A stretch of 64,000 nt of DNA from an uncultured SAR86 cluster bacterium (GTDB lineage Bacteria; Pseudomonadota; Gammaproteobacteria; Magnimaribacterales; AG-339-G14). Shown one piece after another: positions 37,874-46,097 of the stretch (positions within the stretch are counted from its first letter, which is position 1; each line of letters begins with the position of its first letter). Location: positions 559-64,558 of the forward strand of contig CABZTA010000002.1 of assembly GCA_902528485.1 (NCBI GenBank). The letters are read 5' to 3'. A program made the position numbers and the translations under genes. Below the pieces are notes generated by a model. That model had not been told where the DNA came from. It was given only the letters and a program-made list of their open reading frames with translations, and ran no database searches.

Positions 37874-39310
37874 ATGTCATCACTGATAGTTGATTTAGAT
37901 GGAACTCTCACTGACACAGATTGTTCTGTTGAGTCTCTGCTTTCTGCTGTAATTAAAAATCCACTTATTATTTTTTATTCAATATTTTGGTATTTCAAAG
38001 GAAAGCCTTATTTAAAGAAAAGACTTTTTGACGCTTCTAATTTTCATGTTAAGAATTTACCTTTCAATGAGTCTGTTATAGAAATAATAAAGGATGCAAA
38101 AGTTCAAAATAATAAAATCTATCTTTTTACTGGATCGACTCAAAAGATAGCAGACGAGGTATCAGATCATTTAAATCTTTTTGATGGGTCCTTTGGCTCA
38201 AATGAAAAAATCAATCTCACTTCATACAATAAACTCATAAAAATAAGAGATATAATTGGAAATGAACCATTCTCTTATGTTGGAAATTCTAAAGCTGACT
38301 TACCTATCTGGGAAGAAGCTGAAAAAATATACATAGTTTCTAACTTTGGAGAAAGCCTAAAAAATAAATTGAAAAATAAGGCACCAAAAGTCATTCTAAA
38401 ATCTGAGAATTCATATCTTAGTTTCATAAAGATTTTGAGACCTTATCAGTGGTTCAAAAACGTATTGGTTTTTGTACCTTTCTTTATATATGAATATTCA
38501 ACATTAAATGAATTTTGGATGTCAATTATTGGCTTCATCTCTTTTAGCCTTGCTGCTTCATCTGTCTATATTCTGAATGATCTTTTAGATGTTTCCTCTG
38601 ATAGAGAACACCCAACAAAAAAGAAAAGACCTTTCGCATCTGGGGAACTAAACCTACTTCACAGTTTTTGGATGATTCCAGTTTTATTGATTCCTAGTTT
38701 AATTCTTGCATCATCAGTATCTTTTAATTCTCTTATTATTATTTCTTCTTATCTACTAGTAACATTTCTTTATTCTGTTTATTTAAAAAAGGTTCTCATT
38801 TTAGATATATGCATTCTTGCAAGTCTTTATACACTTAGACTGATCGGTGGTGCTATTTTTATTCAATCCGAATTTTCACTTTCTCCATGGCTAATAAACT
38901 TCTCTATATTTTTCTTTTTCTTTTTAGCGTGCATAAAAAGAGAATCGGAATTGATAATAGGAATTGATTCAAAAAAAGAAAATTCACGAAGATCTTATTT
39001 CGAAGAAGATAAAAAAATTATCTCAACTCTCTCGGTATCTTCTGGATTATTATCAGTATTAATTTTGTTGCTTTATGCAGAAAATTCCATGAATTCTTCA
39101 GCTTTTTCTTCTCCAATATTATTATGGTTTTTAAGTCCTGTGTTTTTATATTGGATATCAAGATTTTGTATTATTTCTTCAAGAGGTTTCATAAAAGAAG
39201 ATCCTTTATTTTTTGCAATAAAAGATAGGGTAAGTATTTTATTTGCAATTTTAGTTTTCACAATTATTTCCGCAGCGAAGTTTTTAGAAATTAGTTATTT
39301 TCTGAATTAA
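37874..39310 (+). CDS. HAD phosphatase domain fused to a UbiA-family polyprenyl-phosphate phosphoribosyltransferase (Rv3806c-like)
   Basis: N-terminal LIVDLDGTLTDTD ... YVGNSKADLP. The C-terminal YILNDLLDVSSDREHPTKKKRPFASGEL parallels M. tuberculosis Rv3806c NDVRDVEADREHPTKRFRPIAAG. Multiple TM helices. Confidence 0.8.
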   Translation: MSSLIVDLDGTLTDTDCSVESLLSAVIKNPLIIFYSIFWYFKGKPYLKKRLFDASNFHVKNLPFNESVIEIIKDAKVQNNKIYLFTGSTQKIADEVSDHLNLFDGSFGSNEKINLTSYNKLIKIRDIIGNEPFSYVGNSKADLPIWEEAEKIYIVSNFGESLKNKLKNKAPKVILKSENSYLSFIKILRPYQWFKNVLVFVPFFIYEYSTLNEFWMSIIGFISFSLAASSVYILNDLLDVSSDREHPTKKKRPFASGELNLLHSFWMIPVLLIPSLILASSVSFNSLIIISSYLLVTFLYSVYLKKVLILDICILASLYTLRLIGGAIFIQSEFSLSPWLINFSIFFFFFLACIKRESELIIGIDSKKENSRRSYFEEDKKIISTLSVSSGLLSVLILLLYAENSMNSSAFSSPILLWFLSPVFLYWISRFCIISSRGFIKEDPLFFAIKDRVSILFAILVFTIISAAKFLEISYFLN

Positions 39311-39312
39311 AA

Positions 39313-41439
39313 ATGACGTACAAATATCTAATAGGATTTGTATTTATTCTTTTTTGTATCCTAATTTTTTTATCAACTAACTTTTGGTCAGGCCTTAATC
39401 CCTCAAATTTATCAGATTGGGAGGATTGGAATTATTGGAGCCAAGTATCTCAAGAGAACCAGTTTTATCATCCATTTTTAATAAATCCCTACCAAGGGCT
39501 TTTTGGATATTCATTACCAGTAAACTCATTTCTAAATCCAATTTTTCTAGTTGCTAATCTTTTGAGCAATATTGACAACTATCATATTACGACGAAATTG
39601 CTTGTTGTGATGGTTGAGTCACTTTGTTTAATAATTTTTTTAAAAAGTCTTAAAGTAAATAATTTCTCTATTATTTTTACTTCTTTGCTAAATATTTTTT
39701 TATTCACTTCTTTATTCAATTTATCAGATTGGTCTTTGAGAATTTTTGAAAACTTAATAGACGTTAGTATTTTAAAATCTTTTATTTTATTAATTTTCAC
39801 CTTATTAATTTCTAAGCCTTTATTTTTTAATAACAAAAAGGTTTTTTTAACTCTTGCTTTGTTTTTTTGGGCTTATGCACTAAATCCTTCTTATTTATTA
39901 ATTTACATAGCCTTACCAGCATTTTTTCTTTTAATATTTTATGTTTTTGATGCCAAGAAAAACTTTTTATTTTTTTATAAAAAACAACTGTTAATTCTGA
40001 TTATTTTTTTTGTGCCTCTATTTATTGTCTATTATATTTTTTCTGGAATTTCTGCTAGAAGTGTCTTTGGTAACGAGATAACAAATGAAGTTCAAACTTT
40101 TGATTACTTGAATGTTATATTTTTTAGACCTTCACCTTACTCGGGTTTATTTGCATTTATAACTCTTATCGCCTCATTTTATTTAGTCTTCACGAAGCAC
40201 AAAAGTTTTGGGATTGCCACTATTTCAACCTTTGTTTTATTACTCATCATTGGAGTGTTATACACTTTTACAGGGATAGTATGGAAATATCCAAGTCCAG
40301 TTTATCTTGAGCAGTCAATTTACTTAATTTTTTTAGCATCTATTGCCCTTTGCATCAAAAAAGAGAATATTCTGATAAGCATATTTTTAATTTCATCATG
40401 CAGTTTTTTAGCTTATAAAATTTCCAAACCTAGAATAGCTGACCTTTTTGATAATGAAGGGATTTATCAATCAGCAGACCTTTTGAGAGTTGATGCTCCA
40501 ATTTTTGACATAATTAATGAATTAAGATTTGAAAATGAGTTCAAGGGATCTTTTGCAACAATATTCCCAATGAAAAATAATTTTTATTTAGGCAAAAAAA
40601 TAGAAAATAATTATGAAAAATCGTGGGTTTATGTAAGAAATATGCAAAGGCATTTATACAATAATATTGACAAGAAAATATTTACAACCTCTTTATGGGA
40701 AAACAGGATTCCTTCTTTAGAGGATCATAATCACCTTATTTCTCCATTTAAATATTTCTTCTTTTCGAGGCTTTTATCTTATCCTCAAGATTATCAGAAA
40801 AAAAACTGGCTATTTGCATCAAAAGTAGATTTAACAATCTTAAAAATGCTAGGCGTAAAATATTTATTAACAAATCAGATCTTGGATGAAAAAGAATTAT
40901 TTTTAAAATCATCTGAATCAGATGACTATCGTTTATATCAGTTAAGTAATCCTAATTTAGGAGATTACTACGTTAAAAAAATTGATTTCTTTGAAGACTC
41001 GTCTGAATTTATGAATCGCTTCAATCAGAAAAGTATAGATTTTAGATCCACAGCTTATCTCCATCAGAATGATCAACTTAAACTTCATAAAGACTTATCC
41101 ATCGGGCAAACAGAAATCTTTGAAATTGATAAAAACTCAATAAGAATAAAAGCTAAAACTGAGAGTGCTTCCTTATTAATTTTACCCATAGAATATAGGA
41201 ATATATTTAAATCTAATGAAAGCAATAACTTTACAATATTTAGAGTTAATTTATTTCTCACAGGAATTTATTTTGAAAAGAGTATCGATTTAAAAATTAA
41301 GTATAATTCCTCATTTCTTAAAACATTAAATGGATTTAAAAAGGATATTTCTGATCTGGATGGTTATAAATTTGAAGAAGGTTTCATTACTTATCCTTAT
41401 GATGCTTATCAACCAAAAAGCTTATTTTTAAATGAATGA
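39313..41439 (+). CDS. Large polytopic membrane protein with a C-terminal soluble domain, candidate GT-C glycosyltransferase
   Basis: 708 aa. About 11-13 hydrophobic segments occupy the first 380 aa or so, followed by a hydrophilic domain of about 330 aa. The first loop carries the acidic motif SDWEDWNYW. It lies between the UbiA-like and DprE1-like genes. Confidence 0.45.
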   Translation: MTYKYLIGFVFILFCILIFLSTNFWSGLNPSNLSDWEDWNYWSQVSQENQFYHPFLINPYQGLFGYSLPVNSFLNPIFLVANLLSNIDNYHITTKLLVVMVESLCLIIFLKSLKVNNFSIIFTSLLNIFLFTSLFNLSDWSLRIFENLIDVSILKSFILLIFTLLISKPLFFNNKKVFLTLALFFWAYALNPSYLLIYIALPAFFLLIFYVFDAKKNFLFFYKKQLLILIIFFVPLFIVYYIFSGISARSVFGNEITNEVQTFDYLNVIFFRPSPYSGLFAFITLIASFYLVFTKHKSFGIATISTFVLLLIIGVLYTFTGIVWKYPSPVYLEQSIYLIFLASIALCIKKENILISIFLISSCSFLAYKISKPRIADLFDNEGIYQSADLLRVDAPIFDIINELRFENEFKGSFATIFPMKNNFYLGKKIENNYEKSWVYVRNMQRHLYNNIDKKIFTTSLWENRIPSLEDHNHLISPFKYFFFSRLLSYPQDYQKKNWLFASKVDLTILKMLGVKYLLTNQILDEKELFLKSSESDDYRLYQLSNPNLGDYYVKKIDFFEDSSEFMNRFNQKSIDFRSTAYLHQNDQLKLHKDLSIGQTEIFEIDKNSIRIKAKTESASLLILPIEYRNIFKSNESNNFTIFRVNLFLTGIYFEKSIDLKIKYNSSFLKTLNGFKKDISDLDGYKFEEGFITYPYDAYQPKSLFLNE

Positions 41440-42745
41440 TCATAATTATTTTTCATGGGGAAGGTTGAAAAGAGCATCTGCTCCACAAGTTATTAAGCCA
41501 AATAATTATGAAGATTTACTTAAAAACCTAAAAAAACATAGAAAGCTTGGCAAAGTTTTACCAATTGGATTAATGAGATCATATGGTGATAGCTGCCTTA
41601 TAAAAGAAGGTTTATTACTAGATATGACTGAATTTAAAAAGATAAATAGCTTTGATGAACAATCAGGACTAATTAATGTTCAGGCAGGGATTTCTTTGGA
41701 CGAGCTTTTAAAGTTTATAGTGCCTAAAGGATGGTTTATTCCGACATCACCCGGAACAAAATATGTAACCATTGGTGGCGCCATAGCTAATGATATTCAT
41801 GGAAAAAACCATCATAAATTTGGATCTTTTTGTAATTCAGTCAAAAAGATAAAAGTCTTATCAACTGAGGGCAAATTACAGCTTCTTGAAGATCCTGATG
41901 ATGAAATGTTCAAGGCAACATGTGGTGGTCTAGGATTGACAGGATTAATTTTAGAAGCAGAAATAGAATTAGCAGAAATCAAAAGTTCATACCTTAATGT
42001 AGAAACAATAAAATTTAACAATTTAAAAGAATTTTTTGAAATTGAAAAACAAAGTATAGAAAATTATGAATTTACAGTTTCTTGGATTGACCTCACAAAT
42101 GAGAGTAAATATTTTGGTCGAGGATTATTTCAAAGAGCAAATTGGGCAGATGATAAAGATCTTACGCCTCACTCTTCTTTCAAAATTCCAATTCCTTTTG
42201 GCGTAGGATTTAATTTAGTCAGCAAAAAGCTCATGAAATTATTCAATTTTCTGTATTTTTCTAAAAATTTAAAAAAGAAAACAAAAGAAAAAACTCATTA
42301 TGGCACTTTTTTTTACCCCCTTGATGTCTTGAGAGGATGGAATAAGCTTTATGGAAAAAATGGATTTTCTCAATATCAATTTGTATTGCCAGAAGAAAAT
42401 TCAAAGACTGGTTTAGATGAAATCCTTGAAGTTCTCAAAAATGATAAATTCATGCCTAGGCTATGTGTTTTAAAAACTTTTGGCAAGATACCTTCATTAG
42501 GACATTTAAGTTTTCCACTAAAAGGAACTACCTTGGCTATGGATTTTCCCGTTAATATTAAAAAAAATAAGAATCTCTATAGCAAACTTGATGAAATTGT
42601 TATTAAAAACGGTGGAAGAATTTATCCTGCAAAAGACAGCTTTATGAATAGTAAAACTTTTCAGAGTTCTTATAAAAATTTTCATAAATTCAAGAAATTT
42701 AAAGATACGCATATCTCGTCAGATTTCTGGGAAAGAGTTTCATGA
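41432..42745 (+). CDS. dprE1: FAD-dependent polyprenylphospho-ribose 2'-oxidase (DprE1-like)
   Basis: [35 protein letters not shown] (Mtb [26 protein letters not shown]), [19 protein letters not shown]. Confidence 0.85.
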   Translation: [437 protein letters not shown]

Positions 42746-43491
42746 GTAAAAACCTAGTTATTCTAGGAGCGACTTCTGAAATTGGTATGGAAGTTAATAA
42801 ATTGTTTGCTCAAGAAGGTTGCAATTTCATATTAGTAGGAAGGTCAGAAGAAAGCTTAAAAACACATAAAGAAGTTTTAAAACATCGTGGTGCAAATAAG
42901 GTAATTTCTTATTTCTTAGATTTTGCTGACGAGAACGATGAAGTAAAACTTTTTAATCTTTTTGAAGAGAAATTAGAGGGACCTATAGACATCATTTTTT
43001 TAAATTATGCAGTCCTTGGAAGACAAGAAGAAGAAGAAGTAAATTTATCTTTTGCAATGAAAAATATTTATATAAATTTTATTTCAGCTTTCAAATGGGC
43101 TTTTGCTGCAGGAAATTATTTCAAGGATAAAGATGGAAGATTTATATATTTAAATTCTGTAGCAGCTGAAAGGGGCAGGAGAGGTAATTTTTTTTATGGA
43201 GCATCGAAATCTGGAATGAAGACAATCATGGAAGGATTTGCCAACAAATTTGCCTATAGCAATACTTTTTTTATCAATATTAAGTTAGGCATAATTAAAA
43301 CTAGAATGAGTAGTGAAGTAAAAGGAGTTTCATCCTTTTTAGCATACGATCCAATAAAAACAGCCAGAAAAATTTTCTTGATAACCAAACTAAATAAACC
43401 AAGGAGCTCTTACTACCTTCCTTATTTTTGGAAATATATAATGCTCATCATAAAATTACTCCCTGAGAAAATATTATTTAAAATTAATTAA
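42742..43491 (+). CDS. dprE2: Polyprenylphospho-2'-keto-ribose reductase (DprE2-like SDR)
   Basis: VILGATSEIGMEV, NSVAAERGRRGNFFYGASKSGM (Mtb [22 protein letters not shown]), IIKTRMS, and the C-terminal hydrophobic tail WKYIMLIIKLLPEKILFKIN (Mtb [21 protein letters not shown]). Confidence 0.85.
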   Translation: MSKNLVILGATSEIGMEVNKLFAQEGCNFILVGRSEESLKTHKEVLKHRGANKVISYFLDFADENDEVKLFNLFEEKLEGPIDIIFLNYAVLGRQEEEEVNLSFAMKNIYINFISAFKWAFAAGNYFKDKDGRFIYLNSVAAERGRRGNFFYGASKSGMKTIMEGFANKFAYSNTFFINIKLGIIKTRMSSEVKGVSSFLAYDPIKTARKIFLITKLNKPRSSYYLPYFWKYIMLIIKLLPEKILFKIN

Positions 43492-44426
43492 TGAGGAAAA
43501 TTTTAATAACTGGAGGGGCAGGTTTACTGGGATTTAATCTTTGCAAAGTTCTTTCAGAAAAAGATGATGTTCAATTAACAGTATTAGATAAAAATTTAGA
43601 AAATTTAAAAAAACTTCAAATTTTTTTTCCTTCAGTAAACGTTATAAAAGCAGATTTGGCTGTATTGGATGGATGGGAGAAAGGAATTTCAAATTATGAC
43701 CACTTAATAATATGTCATGCACAAATTACCTCATTAGATGAATTAGACTTCGAAAAAAATAATATTTCATCAACAAAGAATCTTTTGAAAATATTTGAGA
43801 ATAATAACCTAAATAGCTGTATTCACATCAGCAGTTCAGTTGTTAATTCAAAGGCAGATGACTTTTATTCTAGAACTAAGAGAGAGCAAGAAAAATTGGT
43901 AATATCTTCAAAACTTCCATACACAATTCTTCGGCCTACTTTGATGTTTGGCCTTTTTGATAGAAAACATTTAGGTTGGTTATCAAAGTTCATGTCAAAA
44001 TCACCTGTTTTTCCGATACCTGGAAAAGGTGAATACTTGAGGCAGCCACTTTATGCAAAAGATTTTTGCAGAATTATAGAAGAATGCCTTCATGGCAGAC
44101 ATGTTGGAAAAGTTTATAACATAAGCGGTCAGACCAAAATTTTTTACATCGACATAATAAGATCTATAAAAAAAGTAACAAATTCAAAATCAATAATCAT
44201 GCATATTCCCTATAGTTTCTTCTTCATTCTTTTAAAGATATATTCTGTATTTGTCACTAATCCACCATTTAATGTGAATCAGTTAAGAGCTTTAGTTATC
44301 CCAGAAACTTTTGAAATAATCGATTGGGAAAACATTTTTTCCATTAAACAAACTGATTTTCTGGAAGCATTAGACGAAACTTTTAATGATCCTTCTCTTT
44401 CAAACTTGGAATTAGATAGATTATGA
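43491..44426 (+). CDS. NAD(P)-dependent epimerase/dehydratase-family protein
   Basis: ILITGGAGLLGFNL Rossmann motif, YSRTKRE active-site-like motif. 311 aa. Confidence 0.65.
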   Translation: MRKILITGGAGLLGFNLCKVLSEKDDVQLTVLDKNLENLKKLQIFFPSVNVIKADLAVLDGWEKGISNYDHLIICHAQITSLDELDFEKNNISSTKNLLKIFENNNLNSCIHISSSVVNSKADDFYSRTKREQEKLVISSKLPYTILRPTLMFGLFDRKHLGWLSKFMSKSPVFPIPGKGEYLRQPLYAKDFCRIIEECLHGRHVGKVYNISGQTKIFYIDIIRSIKKVTNSKSIIMHIPYSFFFILLKIYSVFVTNPPFNVNQLRALVIPETFEIIDWENIFSIKQTDFLEALDETFNDPSLSNLELDRL

Positions 44427-45712
44427 AGAGCATAGGGATTTTAGGTGCAGGACCAATGGGATTGGCCTGCGCTTATTATGCTCAAAAAAAGGGGTATAAG
44501 GTCACCTTAATAGAAGCTGCTCCATTTATTGGAGGAATGGCATCTCACTTCGAACTAAGTGGAACATCTATTGAAAAATTTTATCATTTTATATGTAAGA
44601 CGGATTTCGATACTTTTGAACTTCTAGATGAGTTGCAGCTATCTGATAAATTAATCTGGAAAAATACATCCATGGGTTATTTTATTGAAGGAAAACTTTA
44701 TAAATGGGGAGATCCATTTTCTCTATTATTTTTTGAAAAATTTAGTTTAATTTCAAAAATCCGATATGGTCTTAACGCTTTTTTTACTAGCAAAAGAAAG
44801 AATTTTGATTCTCTTGAAAACTTAAGTGCTGAAGAATGGCTAAAGTCTTGGATAGGAGAAAAGGCCTATGATCTTGCATGGAAAAAATTAATGGATTATA
44901 AGTTTTATGAATATTCTTCATCTATTTCTGCAGCTTGGATAGCTACAAGGATGAAAAGAGTGGGAAATTCAAGAAAATCTATTTTTCAAGAGCAATTAGG
45001 ATATTTAGAAGGCGGATCGGAGACTTTAGTCAATGCTCTTGCAGATAAAATAAAAGATGACGGAGGAAAGATTATCATCAATTCTCCTGTAACAAATTTA
45101 ATGATTTCTGAAAAAAAAATCCTTGGCTTAGAAGCAAATAATGAGAAATTATATTTTGACTCTGTAATTTCAACTATACCCACACCCTATTTAGATGAAA
45201 TTTTAGGTGAAACTTCATTAGACTTTAGAAACAAATATAAACAAATAGAAAATATTGGAGTCGTCTGTGTCATATATAAGCTTAAAAAGGGCGTTTCAAA
45301 ACATTTCTGGGTAAATATAAATGACGAAAGGTTTGAGCTTCCGGGTTTGATAGAATTTTCAAATCTAAGAAAAATTGAAAATGATTTAAAAATAATTTAT
45401 CTGCCTTATTACATGCCAATTACACATGAAAAATTTGAAAAAAATGATGAATATTTTTTTGAGGAAACTTTTAACTACCTACAAATGCTTAATCCTAATT
45501 TAGAAAAAGAGGATGTTATTGATTTTTCGGTAAATAAATTAAAATATGCTCAACCTATTTGCAATGTAGGCTTCAAAGAAAATATTCCTCCAATACAAAC
45601 CGATATTGAAGATTTATATATTGCTGACACTTGTTTCTATTACCCGGAAGATAGAGGAGTATCTGAAAGCATTAAACTAGCGAAAACAATAATTGAAAAA
45701 ATCGTTATCTAG
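44423..45712 (+). CDS. FAD-dependent oxidoreductase (amine-oxidase / UDP-galactopyranose-mutase-like fold)
   Basis: IGILGAGPMGLACAYYAQKKGYKVTLIEAAPFIGGMA dinucleotide motif. 429 aa. The specific function is not assignable. Confidence 0.6.
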   Translation: MKSIGILGAGPMGLACAYYAQKKGYKVTLIEAAPFIGGMASHFELSGTSIEKFYHFICKTDFDTFELLDELQLSDKLIWKNTSMGYFIEGKLYKWGDPFSLLFFEKFSLISKIRYGLNAFFTSKRKNFDSLENLSAEEWLKSWIGEKAYDLAWKKLMDYKFYEYSSSISAAWIATRMKRVGNSRKSIFQEQLGYLEGGSETLVNALADKIKDDGGKIIINSPVTNLMISEKKILGLEANNEKLYFDSVISTIPTPYLDEILGETSLDFRNKYKQIENIGVVCVIYKLKKGVSKHFWVNINDERFELPGLIEFSNLRKIENDLKIIYLPYYMPITHEKFEKNDEYFFEETFNYLQMLNPNLEKEDVIDFSVNKLKYAQPICNVGFKENIPPIQTDIEDLYIADTCFYYPEDRGVSESIKLAKTIIEKIVI

Positions 45713-46097
45713 ACAATTTCCTACCTTTTTAATTACTGCTGGTGTTGCTGCTTTAGTAAATCTGGCCAGTAGATATTTTTTAAATTTATATATTTCTTTC
45801 GAGTTATCTGTTTTCTTAGCTTACTGTGTGGGAGTTGTTGTGGCTTACACCCTAGCAAAATATTTTGTCTTTGTTTCTAGAAATGAAGATTTAGGTTTAG
45901 AGTTTCTAAGATTCATCATTGTAAATGTTATTTCTTTGGCAATCGTTTGGACAGTTAGCGTGTCTTTAAGAAATATTATCTTTCCTGGATTTGAGATGGA
46001 TTTTTATCCCGAAACAGTCTCGCACATCATCGGGGTAGCAAGTCCTGCTATTTTTAGTTTTTTTGCACATAAGACTTACACTTTTAACGAAAGATAA
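45693..46097 (+). CDS. GtrA-family small membrane protein (candidate polyprenyl-phospho-sugar translocase)
   Basis: 134 aa with four hydrophobic helices. The FLRFIIVNVISLAI and HKTYTF ending are typical of GtrA-like proteins. TTG start. Confidence 0.7.
   Translation: MKKSLSRQFPTFLITAGVAALVNLASRYFLNLYISFELSVFLAYCVGVVVAYTLAKYFVFVSRNEDLGLEFLRFIIVNVISLAIVWTVSVSLRNIIFPGFEMDFYPETVSHIIGVASPAIFSFFAHKTYTFNER

Follow-up and report, generated by a model that had tools for sequence, protein, structure and literature searches.

A predicted bifunctional polyprenyl-phospho-ribofuranose synthase, formed by fusion of a HAD phosphatase domain with a UbiA-fold phosphoribosyltransferase, in a DprE1/DprE2-containing operon of a SAR86 cluster bacterium

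The closest described counterpart of the protein considered here is ORF15 of Citrobacter youngae O1 (AWU66546.1), in which an N-terminal HAD domain, designated PRP, is fused to a C-terminal UbiA-fold PRPP:polyprenyl-P phosphoribosyltransferase, designated PPPRS (Kelly et al. 2024, PMC11127046). Wild-type ORF15 produces farnesyl-P-ribofuranose (m/z 435), and the D18A variant accumulates farnesyl-P-Ribf-5-P (m/z 513). Some dephosphorylated product is still formed by the D18A protein, indicating that the HAD domain is not the sole phosphatase able to act in vivo, and the variant retains partial in vivo function (PMC11127046). ORF15 supplies Ribf in the O1 system; in the O2 system the Ribf donor is turned into Xylf by the SDR epimerase ORF13 (PMC11127046). 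Such loci have been described as a "three-component" pentofuranose system, comprising PPPRS, a lipid-sugar flippase and a GT-C enzyme encoded together (PMC11127046), the latter two being represented in the ORF15 system by a MATE-type flippase and a GT136 GT-C.

The corresponding transferase of Mycobacterium tuberculosis, Rv3806c (UbiA/DPPR synthase, structures 8J8J and 8J8K), lacks a HAD domain, its phosphatase partner being a separate PAP2-family membrane protein, Rv3807c. The lipid is decaprenyl-P, the products are arabinogalactan and LAM, and the pathway includes DprE1/DprE2 epimerization and a GtrA-family partner, Rv3789. A Gram-negative polyprenyl-P-Araf route with PPPRS, DprE1 and DprE2 is found in the D-Araf pilin glycosylation cluster of Pseudomonas aeruginosa PA7/Pa5196 (PsPA7_6245-6249), where PPPRS is unfused and there is a separate Rv3807c-like phosphatase (bioRxiv 10.1101/2020.04.19.049825; PMC11127046). 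The gPRT-PRP ribofuranosyltransferases, exemplified by that of Thermobacillus composti (Kelly et al. 2022), also perform PRPP-dependent phosphoribosyl transfer followed by the action of a HAD PRP domain in the same polypeptide; their transferase is, however, a soluble gPRT working on a glycan acceptor, whereas the enzyme described below has a UbiA-fold membrane transferase predicted to work on lipid. The T. composti structure was absent from the PDB sequence and Foldseek matches of our protein.

We analyzed a 64,000-nucleotide stretch of DNA from an uncultured SAR86 cluster bacterium, hereafter the window. It encodes a 478-aa fusion protein (Table 1) whose ATG start codon lies right behind the stop codon of an upstream Zn-dehydrogenase gene and whose end is separated by 2 nt from the next gene, placing the fusion gene within an operon. 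The initial annotation had described the product as a HAD-UbiA fusion with intact catalytic motifs, and this is confirmed: all four HAD motifs are present, and residues 3-469 match positions 13-480 of the 482-position NCBIfam profile NF006088/PRK08238 with 497.4 bits, well above the curated cut-off of 351 bits, a result repeated in a genome-wide search. Because the match runs end to end, the architecture is that of a curated two-domain family and not a chance juxtaposition or assembly artefact. The NCBIfam product name, "UbiA family prenyltransferase", omits both the phosphatase domain and the phosphoribosyltransferase chemistry of this family, to which the window protein belongs over its full length. 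We regard the gene product as very probably a bifunctional polyprenyl-phospho-ribofuranose synthase; both activities have been measured in the C. youngae homologue, and by analogy the window protein would possess them as well.

Table 1. Features of the fusion gene and the operon downstream of it; positions are those of the window.
Feature	Coordinates	Strand	Basis or predicted role
PRP-PPPRS fusion gene (predicted)	37874..39310	+	ORF; NF006088 E 3.8e-149; AF2 pLDDT 88.4, pTM 0.84
HAD (PRP) domain, residues 1-176	37874..38401	+	AF2 secondary structure; Foldseek; homologues pass PF12710
HAD motif I DLDGTLTD, residues 7-14	37892..37915	+	D7 nucleophile, D9 general acid/base (predicted)
HAD motif II, T86; motif III, K120			both upstream of motif IV
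HAD motif IV GNSKAD, residues 137-142	38282..38299	+	D142 with N/D138, predicted Mg2+ ligands
UbiA-fold phosphoribosyltransferase domain, residues 181-478	38414..39307	+	about nine TM helices; Rv3806c match
First Asp-rich loop NDLLDVSSD (N235, D236, D239, D243)	38576..38602	+	predicted Mg2+/PRPP site; alignment
708-aa polytopic membrane protein, tentative GT-C glycosyltransferase using lipid-linked pentofuranose	39313..41439	+	Foldseek
DprE1-like FAD oxidase (polyprenyl-P-ribose 2'-oxidase)	41432..42745	+	NF053785 E 1e-107, below cut-off; PDB 4AUT
DprE2-like SDR (2'-keto reductase)	42742..43491	+	NF053786 E 1.5e-31, PRK07102 E 9e-46, both below cut-off
Extended-SDR epimerase/dehydratase-family protein	43491..44426	+	PF01370 E 4.5e-17; same place in L031, L086
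FAD oxidoreductase, family NF005560/PRK07233	44423..45712	+	NF005560 E 2.2e-149; conserved in L031, L086
GtrA-family small membrane protein, candidate lipid-linked-sugar flippase	45693..46097	+	PF04138 E 3.8e-12

The N-terminal domain, whose first 150 residues were modeled by AF2 with block-mean pLDDT values of 87-95, consists of a Rossmann-like core with a helical cap (residues 17-77) inserted after motif I. The initial annotation correctly proposed a HAD domain here but made it about 190 residues long; in the AF2 model it spans about 176 residues and is followed by a short linker of lower confidence. Foldseek matched the domain to the HAD phosphatases 2go7, 3n28, 1f5s and 3fvv, each with a probability of 1.0. 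With 21.8 bits for PF00702 (threshold 26.4) and 15.6 bits for PF12710 (threshold 27), the domain falls below the Pfam gathering thresholds, and its identity as a HAD therefore rests on the catalytic motifs, on the predicted fold and on homologues that pass PF12710 (P0048, P0053 and P0080). Across 199 fused homologues from many phyla, motifs I to IV are kept as strictly as the transferase residues: D7, T/S86, K120 and D142 are found in all 199, D9 and T/S11 in 198, and N/D138 in 197.

Such invariance bears on the possibility that the HAD domain is catalytically silent, contributing structure, regulation or PRPP recruitment while a separate cellular phosphatase removes the phosphate. The same genome does encode PAP2 proteins, and ORF15 D18A is partly functional in vivo as noted above; however, the two PAP2 genes lie on other contigs (C17 and C9), unlinked to the operon, and catalytic residues that are invariant or nearly so in homologues from many phyla are not expected of a degenerate domain. 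We consider a silent HAD domain very improbable. An active HAD domain might also have another substrate, either a soluble phosphoester such as phosphoserine or a polyprenyl pyrophosphate whose hydrolysis would regenerate the lipid acceptor. Some homologues carry the JGI name [quoted passage not shown], phosphoserine phosphatases are among the best structural matches of the domain, and stand-alone HADs of the same subfamily occur apart from any UbiA gene. The resemblance to phosphoserine phosphatase is nevertheless confined to the fold (12-18% identity in Foldseek), the AF2 model shows the domain covalently attached to a membrane enzyme close to where PRPP binds, the fusion co-varies with DprE1/E2, which require a dephosphorylated substrate, and it is the 5-phosphate lipid product that accumulates in ORF15 D18A (PMC11127046). 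A different substrate is thus highly unlikely.

The C-terminal domain is recognized by Pfam as UbiA (residues 204-424, E 2.8e-22), and a profile search of the PDB matched it to Rv3806c (8J8J, E 9.4e-50). This structure is also the top Foldseek match of the window protein (8j8j_A, E 3.4e-10, TM 0.83 on the target, 29% identity). The residues of Rv3806c that bind PRPP, Mg2+ and the 5'-phosphate were defined in the 8J8K structure (PMC10994848), and 10 of the 12 PRPP-binding residues are identical in the alignment with the window protein: R22, K28, Y70, N73 and D77 of Rv3806c correspond to R189, K195, Y232, N235 and D239, and K87, R90, Y138, K143 and Y157 to K249, R252, Y300, K305 and Y319. Q135 is replaced by T297, and K208 is unaligned, with the invariant R373 nearby. 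The Asp-rich loop residues N235, D236, D239 and D243, which align to N73, D74, D77 and D81 of Rv3806c, are each present in all 199 fused homologues.

The window protein is a relative and not an equivalog of the actinobacterial-type DPPRS, as judged by bit scores of 141.5, 136.6 and 127.5 against the respective cut-offs of 207, 234 and 474 for the NCBIfam equivalog models NF008976-8. That the domain might be a conventional UbiA enzyme prenylating an aromatic substrate with a prenyl diphosphate, in a cluster unrelated to pentofuranose donors, would accord with the NCBI family name. It is hardly credible given that the DPPRS models matched with E-values of 1e-37 to 1e-41, compared with 1e-4 for 4-hydroxybenzoate prenyltransferases, that the phosphoribose-binding residues K28, Y70 and Y157 of Rv3806c, which other UbiA enzymes do not retain (PMC10994848), are identical here, and that DprE1 and DprE2 adjoin the fusion.

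The residues D18, N247, D248, D251, D255, R366 and E369, which were mutated in ORF15, correspond to D7, N235, D236, D239, D243, R356 and E359, so that all seven are identical by numbering, with offsets of 11, 12 and 10; the shift from 12 to 10 is accounted for by a two-residue insertion observed in the family alignment. The likeness to ORF15 is judged from the published account of its architecture, from residue numbering and from presumed membership of the same NCBIfam family.

DprE1 and DprE2 homologues are adjacent to PPPRS in the window operon, which links it to a DPA-type pathway. The DprE1-like protein matches the DprE1 structure 4AUT with an E-value of 8.2e-67, and both homologues score below their NCBIfam equivalog cut-offs. 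A survey of this linkage, proposed in the initial annotation, revealed dprE1 and dprE2 directly downstream of the fusion in 42 of 68 loci, DprE2 always being immediately behind DprE1 in related loci. Among 300 sampled genomes of the phylum, DprE1 was encoded in 31 of the 38 with a member of the fusion family, always within 7 kb, and in 11 of the 262 without one. DprE1 was encoded elsewhere in three of five genomes with an apparently unlinked fusion. A distinct arabinofuranose-type fusion subfamily was considered and rejected, as DprE-linked and unlinked proteins are interspersed in the tree.

In 15 linked loci, the Pfam families encoded by at least two flanking genes did not include PAP2. A regular expression for the PAP2 tripartite motif had no match in 80 loci or in the window, but it detected only one of two control PAP2 genes, and for this reason we relied on the Pfam tally. 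Where the UbiA gene is unfused and accompanied by DprE1/E2, a stand-alone HAD gene is present in one locus (L098) and a DUF212 divergent PAP2 gene in another (L097); no recognizable phosphatase gene adjoins two other unfused family members (L093 and L095). Elsewhere, a 182-aa stand-alone HAD (P0137) adjoins grpE without a UbiA neighbor, and another (P0151) sits on a 692-bp contig. Together, the ORF15 D18A phenotype, the conserved residues, the DprE linkage and the unfused loci support the earlier proposal of 5'-dephosphorylation by the fused HAD domain in this lineage.

The ORF15 and window genes are similarly located in surface-glycan operons with a candidate lipid-sugar flippase and a GT-C, the latter tentative in the window. 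They differ in their partners: DprE1 and DprE2, which define an Araf route, are present in the window, and the candidate flippase is a GtrA-family and not a MATE protein. In 5 of 15 loci GtrA adjoins the fusion, and it is also present in a Prochlorococcus locus (L088). The 708-aa protein, which is unclassified, has no sequence match in Pfam, NCBIfam or the PDB and just seven detected homologues. Its AF2 model is poor (pLDDT 59), yet the best 12 Foldseek matches are all GT-C enzymes, including AftD, AftA, ArnT and Stt3, and we tentatively assign it as a GT-C glycosyltransferase on this low-confidence model. The gene is syntenic in L086, and in a relative with 57% identity the synteny extends over the entire operon.

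The two additional redox genes downstream of dprE2 make the final sugar uncertain. The fusion could function as described while the SDR and the flavoprotein edit the pentose or the lipid, so that the end product would not be arabinofuranose. The pair is kept between DprE2 and GtrA in L031 and L086, and there is a precedent in the conversion of Ribf to Xylf donor by C. youngae ORF13. Nonetheless, the pair is present in 1 of 80 loci and is missing from most DprE-linked fusion loci, neither protein has a characterized close relative, and the pair could serve a different sugar of a large glycan operon. We consider such a product unlikely. It is decidedly unlikely that the pair edits the lipid-linked pentose to yet another pentofuranose, distinct from Ribf, Araf and Xylf, such as D-lyxofuranose, the 2,3-di-epimer, a sugar never found in a glycan according to Kelly et al. 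(PMC11127046).

The domain architecture, the fold, the conservation of catalytic and PRPP-binding residues and the gene linkage are established in this analysis; in the mechanism that we propose for the arabinofuranose route, we infer which lipid serves as carrier, which sugar finally results and which glycan accepts it. The C-terminal domain would bind a polyprenyl phosphate, probably undecaprenyl-P, and Mg2+-PRPP at the cytoplasmic face of the inner membrane, and would move 5-phosphoribose onto the lipid phosphate with release of pyrophosphate. The HAD domain, joined through the short linker to TM1 at its cytoplasmic end, beside the PRPP site, would then hydrolyze the 5'-phosphate through an aspartyl-phosphate intermediate, with D7 as nucleophile, D9 as acid/base, T86 and K120 holding the phosphate, and D142 and N138 holding Mg2+, to give polyprenyl-P-beta-D-ribofuranose. 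Epimerization at C2 by the DprE1-like FAD oxidase and then the DprE2-like reductase would yield polyprenyl-P-D-arabinofuranose. This donor may be flipped across the membrane by the GtrA protein, and the sugar may be transferred in the periplasm to a surface glycan by the 708-aa GT-C-like protein.

The Rosetta-stone inference from the fusion is not new, as the role of the PRP domain was already published in 2024, and the comparison of wild-type and HAD-mutant products that the initial annotation proposed had been performed on ORF15 (PMC11127046). The window gene is an ordinary further member of a known, widespread fusion family, for which 5'-dephosphorylation is performed by the fused HAD domain, as shown experimentally in the homologue. 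The result covers this lineage only and neither identifies nor confirms the mycobacterial phosphatase (Rv3807c, PAP2). Different lineages rely on unrelated enzymes for the phosphatase step, namely a HAD that is either fused or separate, a PAP2 protein or a divergent PAP2 protein, which calls for caution before the assignment is carried over to mycobacteria. Current annotation pipelines give the fusion proteins the prenyltransferase name alone. The streamlined marine bacterium of the window and Prochlorococcus possess a full set of genes for a lipid-linked arabinofuranose donor route, and it is consequently likely that D-arabinofuranose surface glycans are much commoner in Gram-negative bacterioplankton than one would judge from the small number of structures solved so far.

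The gene for the fusion of a HAD phosphatase domain to a UbiA-fold phosphoribosyltransferase lies within a long co-directional glycan operon, with its ATG directly 3' of the stop codon of the preceding Zn-dehydrogenase gene and its end 2 nt before the next gene. The ORF and its two HAD motifs, as read in the initial annotation, were confirmed by the coordinates and residue positions, with DLDGTLTD at residues 7-14 and GNSKAD at residues 137-142. An NCBIfam search matched residues 3-469 to NF006088 (PRK08238), a 482-position model covering both domains (497 bits; cut-off, 351 bits; E 3.8e-149). The fusion therefore belongs to a curated family and is not a product of chance or of assembly, in a metagenome-assembled genome of 0.89 Mb and 60% completeness. 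The GyrA encoded by this genome shares 99% identity with that of a MAG designated "SAR116 cluster bacterium". Pfam recognizes UbiA at residues 204-424 (E 2.8e-22). The HAD domain (37874-38407) gives only a sub-threshold Pfam match, as do those of its closest relatives, P0001 and P0002, so precomputed annotations give UbiA alone for these proteins. Pfam-based domain surveys would under-count the fusion in low-GC marine lineages; the G+C content of the window is about 31%.

Features of the glycan operon around the fusion gene
Feature	Coordinates	Strand	Description
HAD-UbiA fusion gene	37874-39310	+	ORF, 478 aa
708-aa membrane protein	39313-41439	+	GT-C-like by Foldseek of AF2 model
Extended-SDR (311 aa), NF005560/PRK07233 flavoprotein, GtrA	43491-46097	+	After DprE2, ends overlapping

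An AF2 model of the fusion protein built with 30 homologues (pLDDT 88.4, pTM 0.84) places a Rossmann-like core in residues 1-176 (strands 3-7, 81-89, 105-109, 133-137, 151-155 and 172-175), with a helical cap, residues 17-77, inserted after motif I. An N-terminal HAD-type domain is thus retained from the initial annotation, although its extent, put there at about 190 aa, ends in the model at residue 176, followed by a linker of lower confidence and by membrane-domain helices from residue 181. The protein has no N-terminal signal sequence, and the catalytic strand begins at residue 3. TM1 of Rv3806c, the mycobacterial DPPR synthase, starts at the cytoplasmic PRPP site. From these two features we infer that the HAD domain would be cytoplasmic, beside the transferase active site.

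The top Foldseek match in the PDB was M. tuberculosis Rv3806c (8j8j_A, E 3.4e-10, TM 0.83 on the target), followed by other UbiA-fold enzymes and then by the HAD phosphatases 2go7, 3n28, 1f5s and 3fvv (probability 1.0); a profile search of PDB sequences also found Rv3806c (E 9.4e-50). According to the profile alignment, 10 of the 12 Rv3806c residues involved in binding PRPP, Mg2+ and the 5'-phosphate (PMC10994848) are identical in the window protein: R22, K28, Y70, N73, D77, K87, R90, Y138, K143 and Y157 correspond to R189, K195, Y232, N235, D239, K249, R252, Y300, K305 and Y319. Some of the Rv3806c ligand-binding residues have no counterpart in ordinary UbiA prenyltransferases (PMC10994848), and the identical residues include such positions, which disfavors the automatic label of 4-hydroxybenzoate polyprenyltransferase.

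Both the architecture and the function of the fusion have already been published. In ORF15 of Citrobacter youngae O1, a phosphoribose phosphatase (PRP) of the HAD family forms the N-terminal part and a polyprenyl-phosphate phosphoribosyltransferase (PPPRS) the C-terminal part (Kelly et al. 2024, PNAS, PMC11127046), and an experiment of the type proposed in the initial annotation has been reported for it. ORF15 membranes supplied with PRPP and farnesyl-P formed farnesyl-P-Ribf (m/z 435, NMR-confirmed), and the D18A variant formed farnesyl-P-Ribf-5-P (m/z 513) with a little dephosphorylated product remaining (PMC11127046). The seven mutated ORF15 residues, compared by published numbering, are all identical in the window protein: D18, N247, D248, D251, D255, R366 and E369 correspond to D7, N235, D236, D239, D243, R356 and E359. 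The residue offsets are 11, 12 and 10; where 12 changes to 10, the window protein has two residues inserted relative to most homologs in the alignment.

The fusion family is large, with more than 1,900 protein clusters among the matches listed and at least 597 species-level genomes matching one peptide pattern. The HAD domain alone as query retrieved 2,554 representatives at E <= 1e-10, and among the best 150 of these it is always N-terminal. A length peak of 160-199 aa among the same best 150 makes it probable that this HAD subfamily also has free-standing members. P0137, a stand-alone HAD protein of 182 aa, is 39% identical to the window HAD domain; its gene (L090:684-1232, L091:352-900) adjoins grpE without a UbiA gene nearby. 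Across 199 aligned fused homologs, HAD residues D7, T/S86, K120 and D142 are conserved in 199, D9 and T/S11 in 198, and N/D138 in 197, and transferase residues N235, D236, D239, D243, R244, K355 and R356 are each conserved in all 199. The HAD catalytic residues are as strictly kept as those of the transferase, which makes it very unlikely that the HAD domain is silent or has a structural role only.

The survey of linkage to dprE1/dprE2 proposed in the initial annotation upheld the association. Among 80 fusion loci compared, 68 extend for 3 kb or more past the fusion gene; homologs of both DprE1 and DprE2 follow it immediately, in the same orientation, in 42 of these, whereas 24 encode neither and two encode one of the pair. 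Three of five "unlinked" genomes checked have a DprE1 homolog elsewhere. Linked and unlinked members are interspersed on the tree of fusion proteins, a pattern consistent with epimerases that act as modules on a shared Ribf entry point. According to Kelly et al., loci for Araf-containing glycans have DprE1/E2 homologs alongside the same machinery (PMC11127046, SI Fig. S11). We also drew 300 genomes evenly from the phylum, requesting at least 90% completeness. NF006088 over its cut-off was present in 38 (36 fused, two of which have a divergent HAD domain, and two unfused) and a DprE1 homolog (E <= 1e-40) in 42. Both occurred in 31, in every case on one contig and no more than 7 kb apart, the family only in seven, DprE1 only in 11 and neither in 251. 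DprE1 is thus found in 82% of carriers versus 4% of non-carriers, related genomes not being independent. The actinobacterium Nocardioides marinus, which is outside the mycolata, has fused HAD-UbiA, DprE1 and DprE2 (L073:10001-13900) rather than the Rv3806c/Rv3807c arrangement. In Prochlorococcus GCA_000760035.1, the fusion, GtrA, DprE1 and DprE2 genes stand in a row (L088:9001-12902), which implies, from gene content, a lipid-linked arabinofuranose donor in this major marine cyanobacterium.

The window operon itself encodes a DprE1-like protein (M. smegmatis DprE1, 4AUT, matched at E 8.2e-67), a DprE2-like SDR and a GtrA-family protein. The order of the entire operon is preserved on L086, a marine metagenome contig encoding a fusion protein with 57% identity to that of the window: fusion, ~710-aa membrane protein, DprE1, DprE2, SDR, flavoprotein and GtrA. 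The 708-aa protein has no family match and no PDB sequence match, and a search of 5.8 billion proteins detected only seven homologs, including a 939-aa form carrying PF09335. The AF2 model of the 708-aa protein is of low quality (pLDDT 59), yet the twelve best Foldseek matches are all GT-C proteins (Stt3, AftD, AftA, DPY19, ArnT; TM 0.3-0.4), so it is tentatively GT-C-like. The other 80 fusion loci contain no homolog of it, and the transferase partner is therefore highly variable. The SDR-flavoprotein-GtrA order after fusion-DprE1-DprE2 recurs in L086 and in Schauerella fraxinea (L031; 49%, 43% and 38% identity to the window proteins, respectively). The flavoprotein matches NF005560 (E 2e-149), and neither it nor the SDR has characterized close relatives; they might further edit the lipid-linked pentose.

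At 15 DprE-linked fusion loci, the recurrent flanking families were adh_short (15), FAD_binding_4 (14) and GtrA (5), and PAP2 was absent from the families seen at two or more flanking genes. In four of the DprE1-positive genomes without the fusion, an unfused UbiA gene adjoins DprE1/DprE2. One alphaproteobacterial operon (L098:7042-14309, genome G120) holds an unfused pathway in the order DprE1, DprE2, a stand-alone HAD protein of 203 aa (PF12710, E 5e-36), a 387-aa protein of unknown function, a 287-aa UbiA protein, an LPG_synthase_TM protein and a PMT_2-type GT-C; by BLASTP this HAD protein resembles the window HAD domain at motif I only. In genome G100 (L097:8776-10076), the unfused UbiA gene adjacent to DprE1/DprE2 is directly followed by a gene whose 163-aa product matches DUF212, "divergent PAP2" (E 3.6e-33), and is a candidate for a further, third type of phosphatase acting on lipid-P-ribose-5-P. 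P. aeruginosa 6245 is a PAP2 protein, as is Rv3807c of mycobacteria (bioRxiv 10.1101/2020.04.19.049825; PMC11127046). Taken together, these proteins show that unrelated enzymes fill the 5'-dephosphorylation step in different lineages, and the fusion is consequently no direct evidence on the identity of the mycobacterial phosphatase. The complementary distribution of phosphatases joins the ORF15 biochemistry and the conservation of the HAD domain in supporting the earlier proposal that the fused HAD domain would act as the 5'-phosphatase in this lineage.
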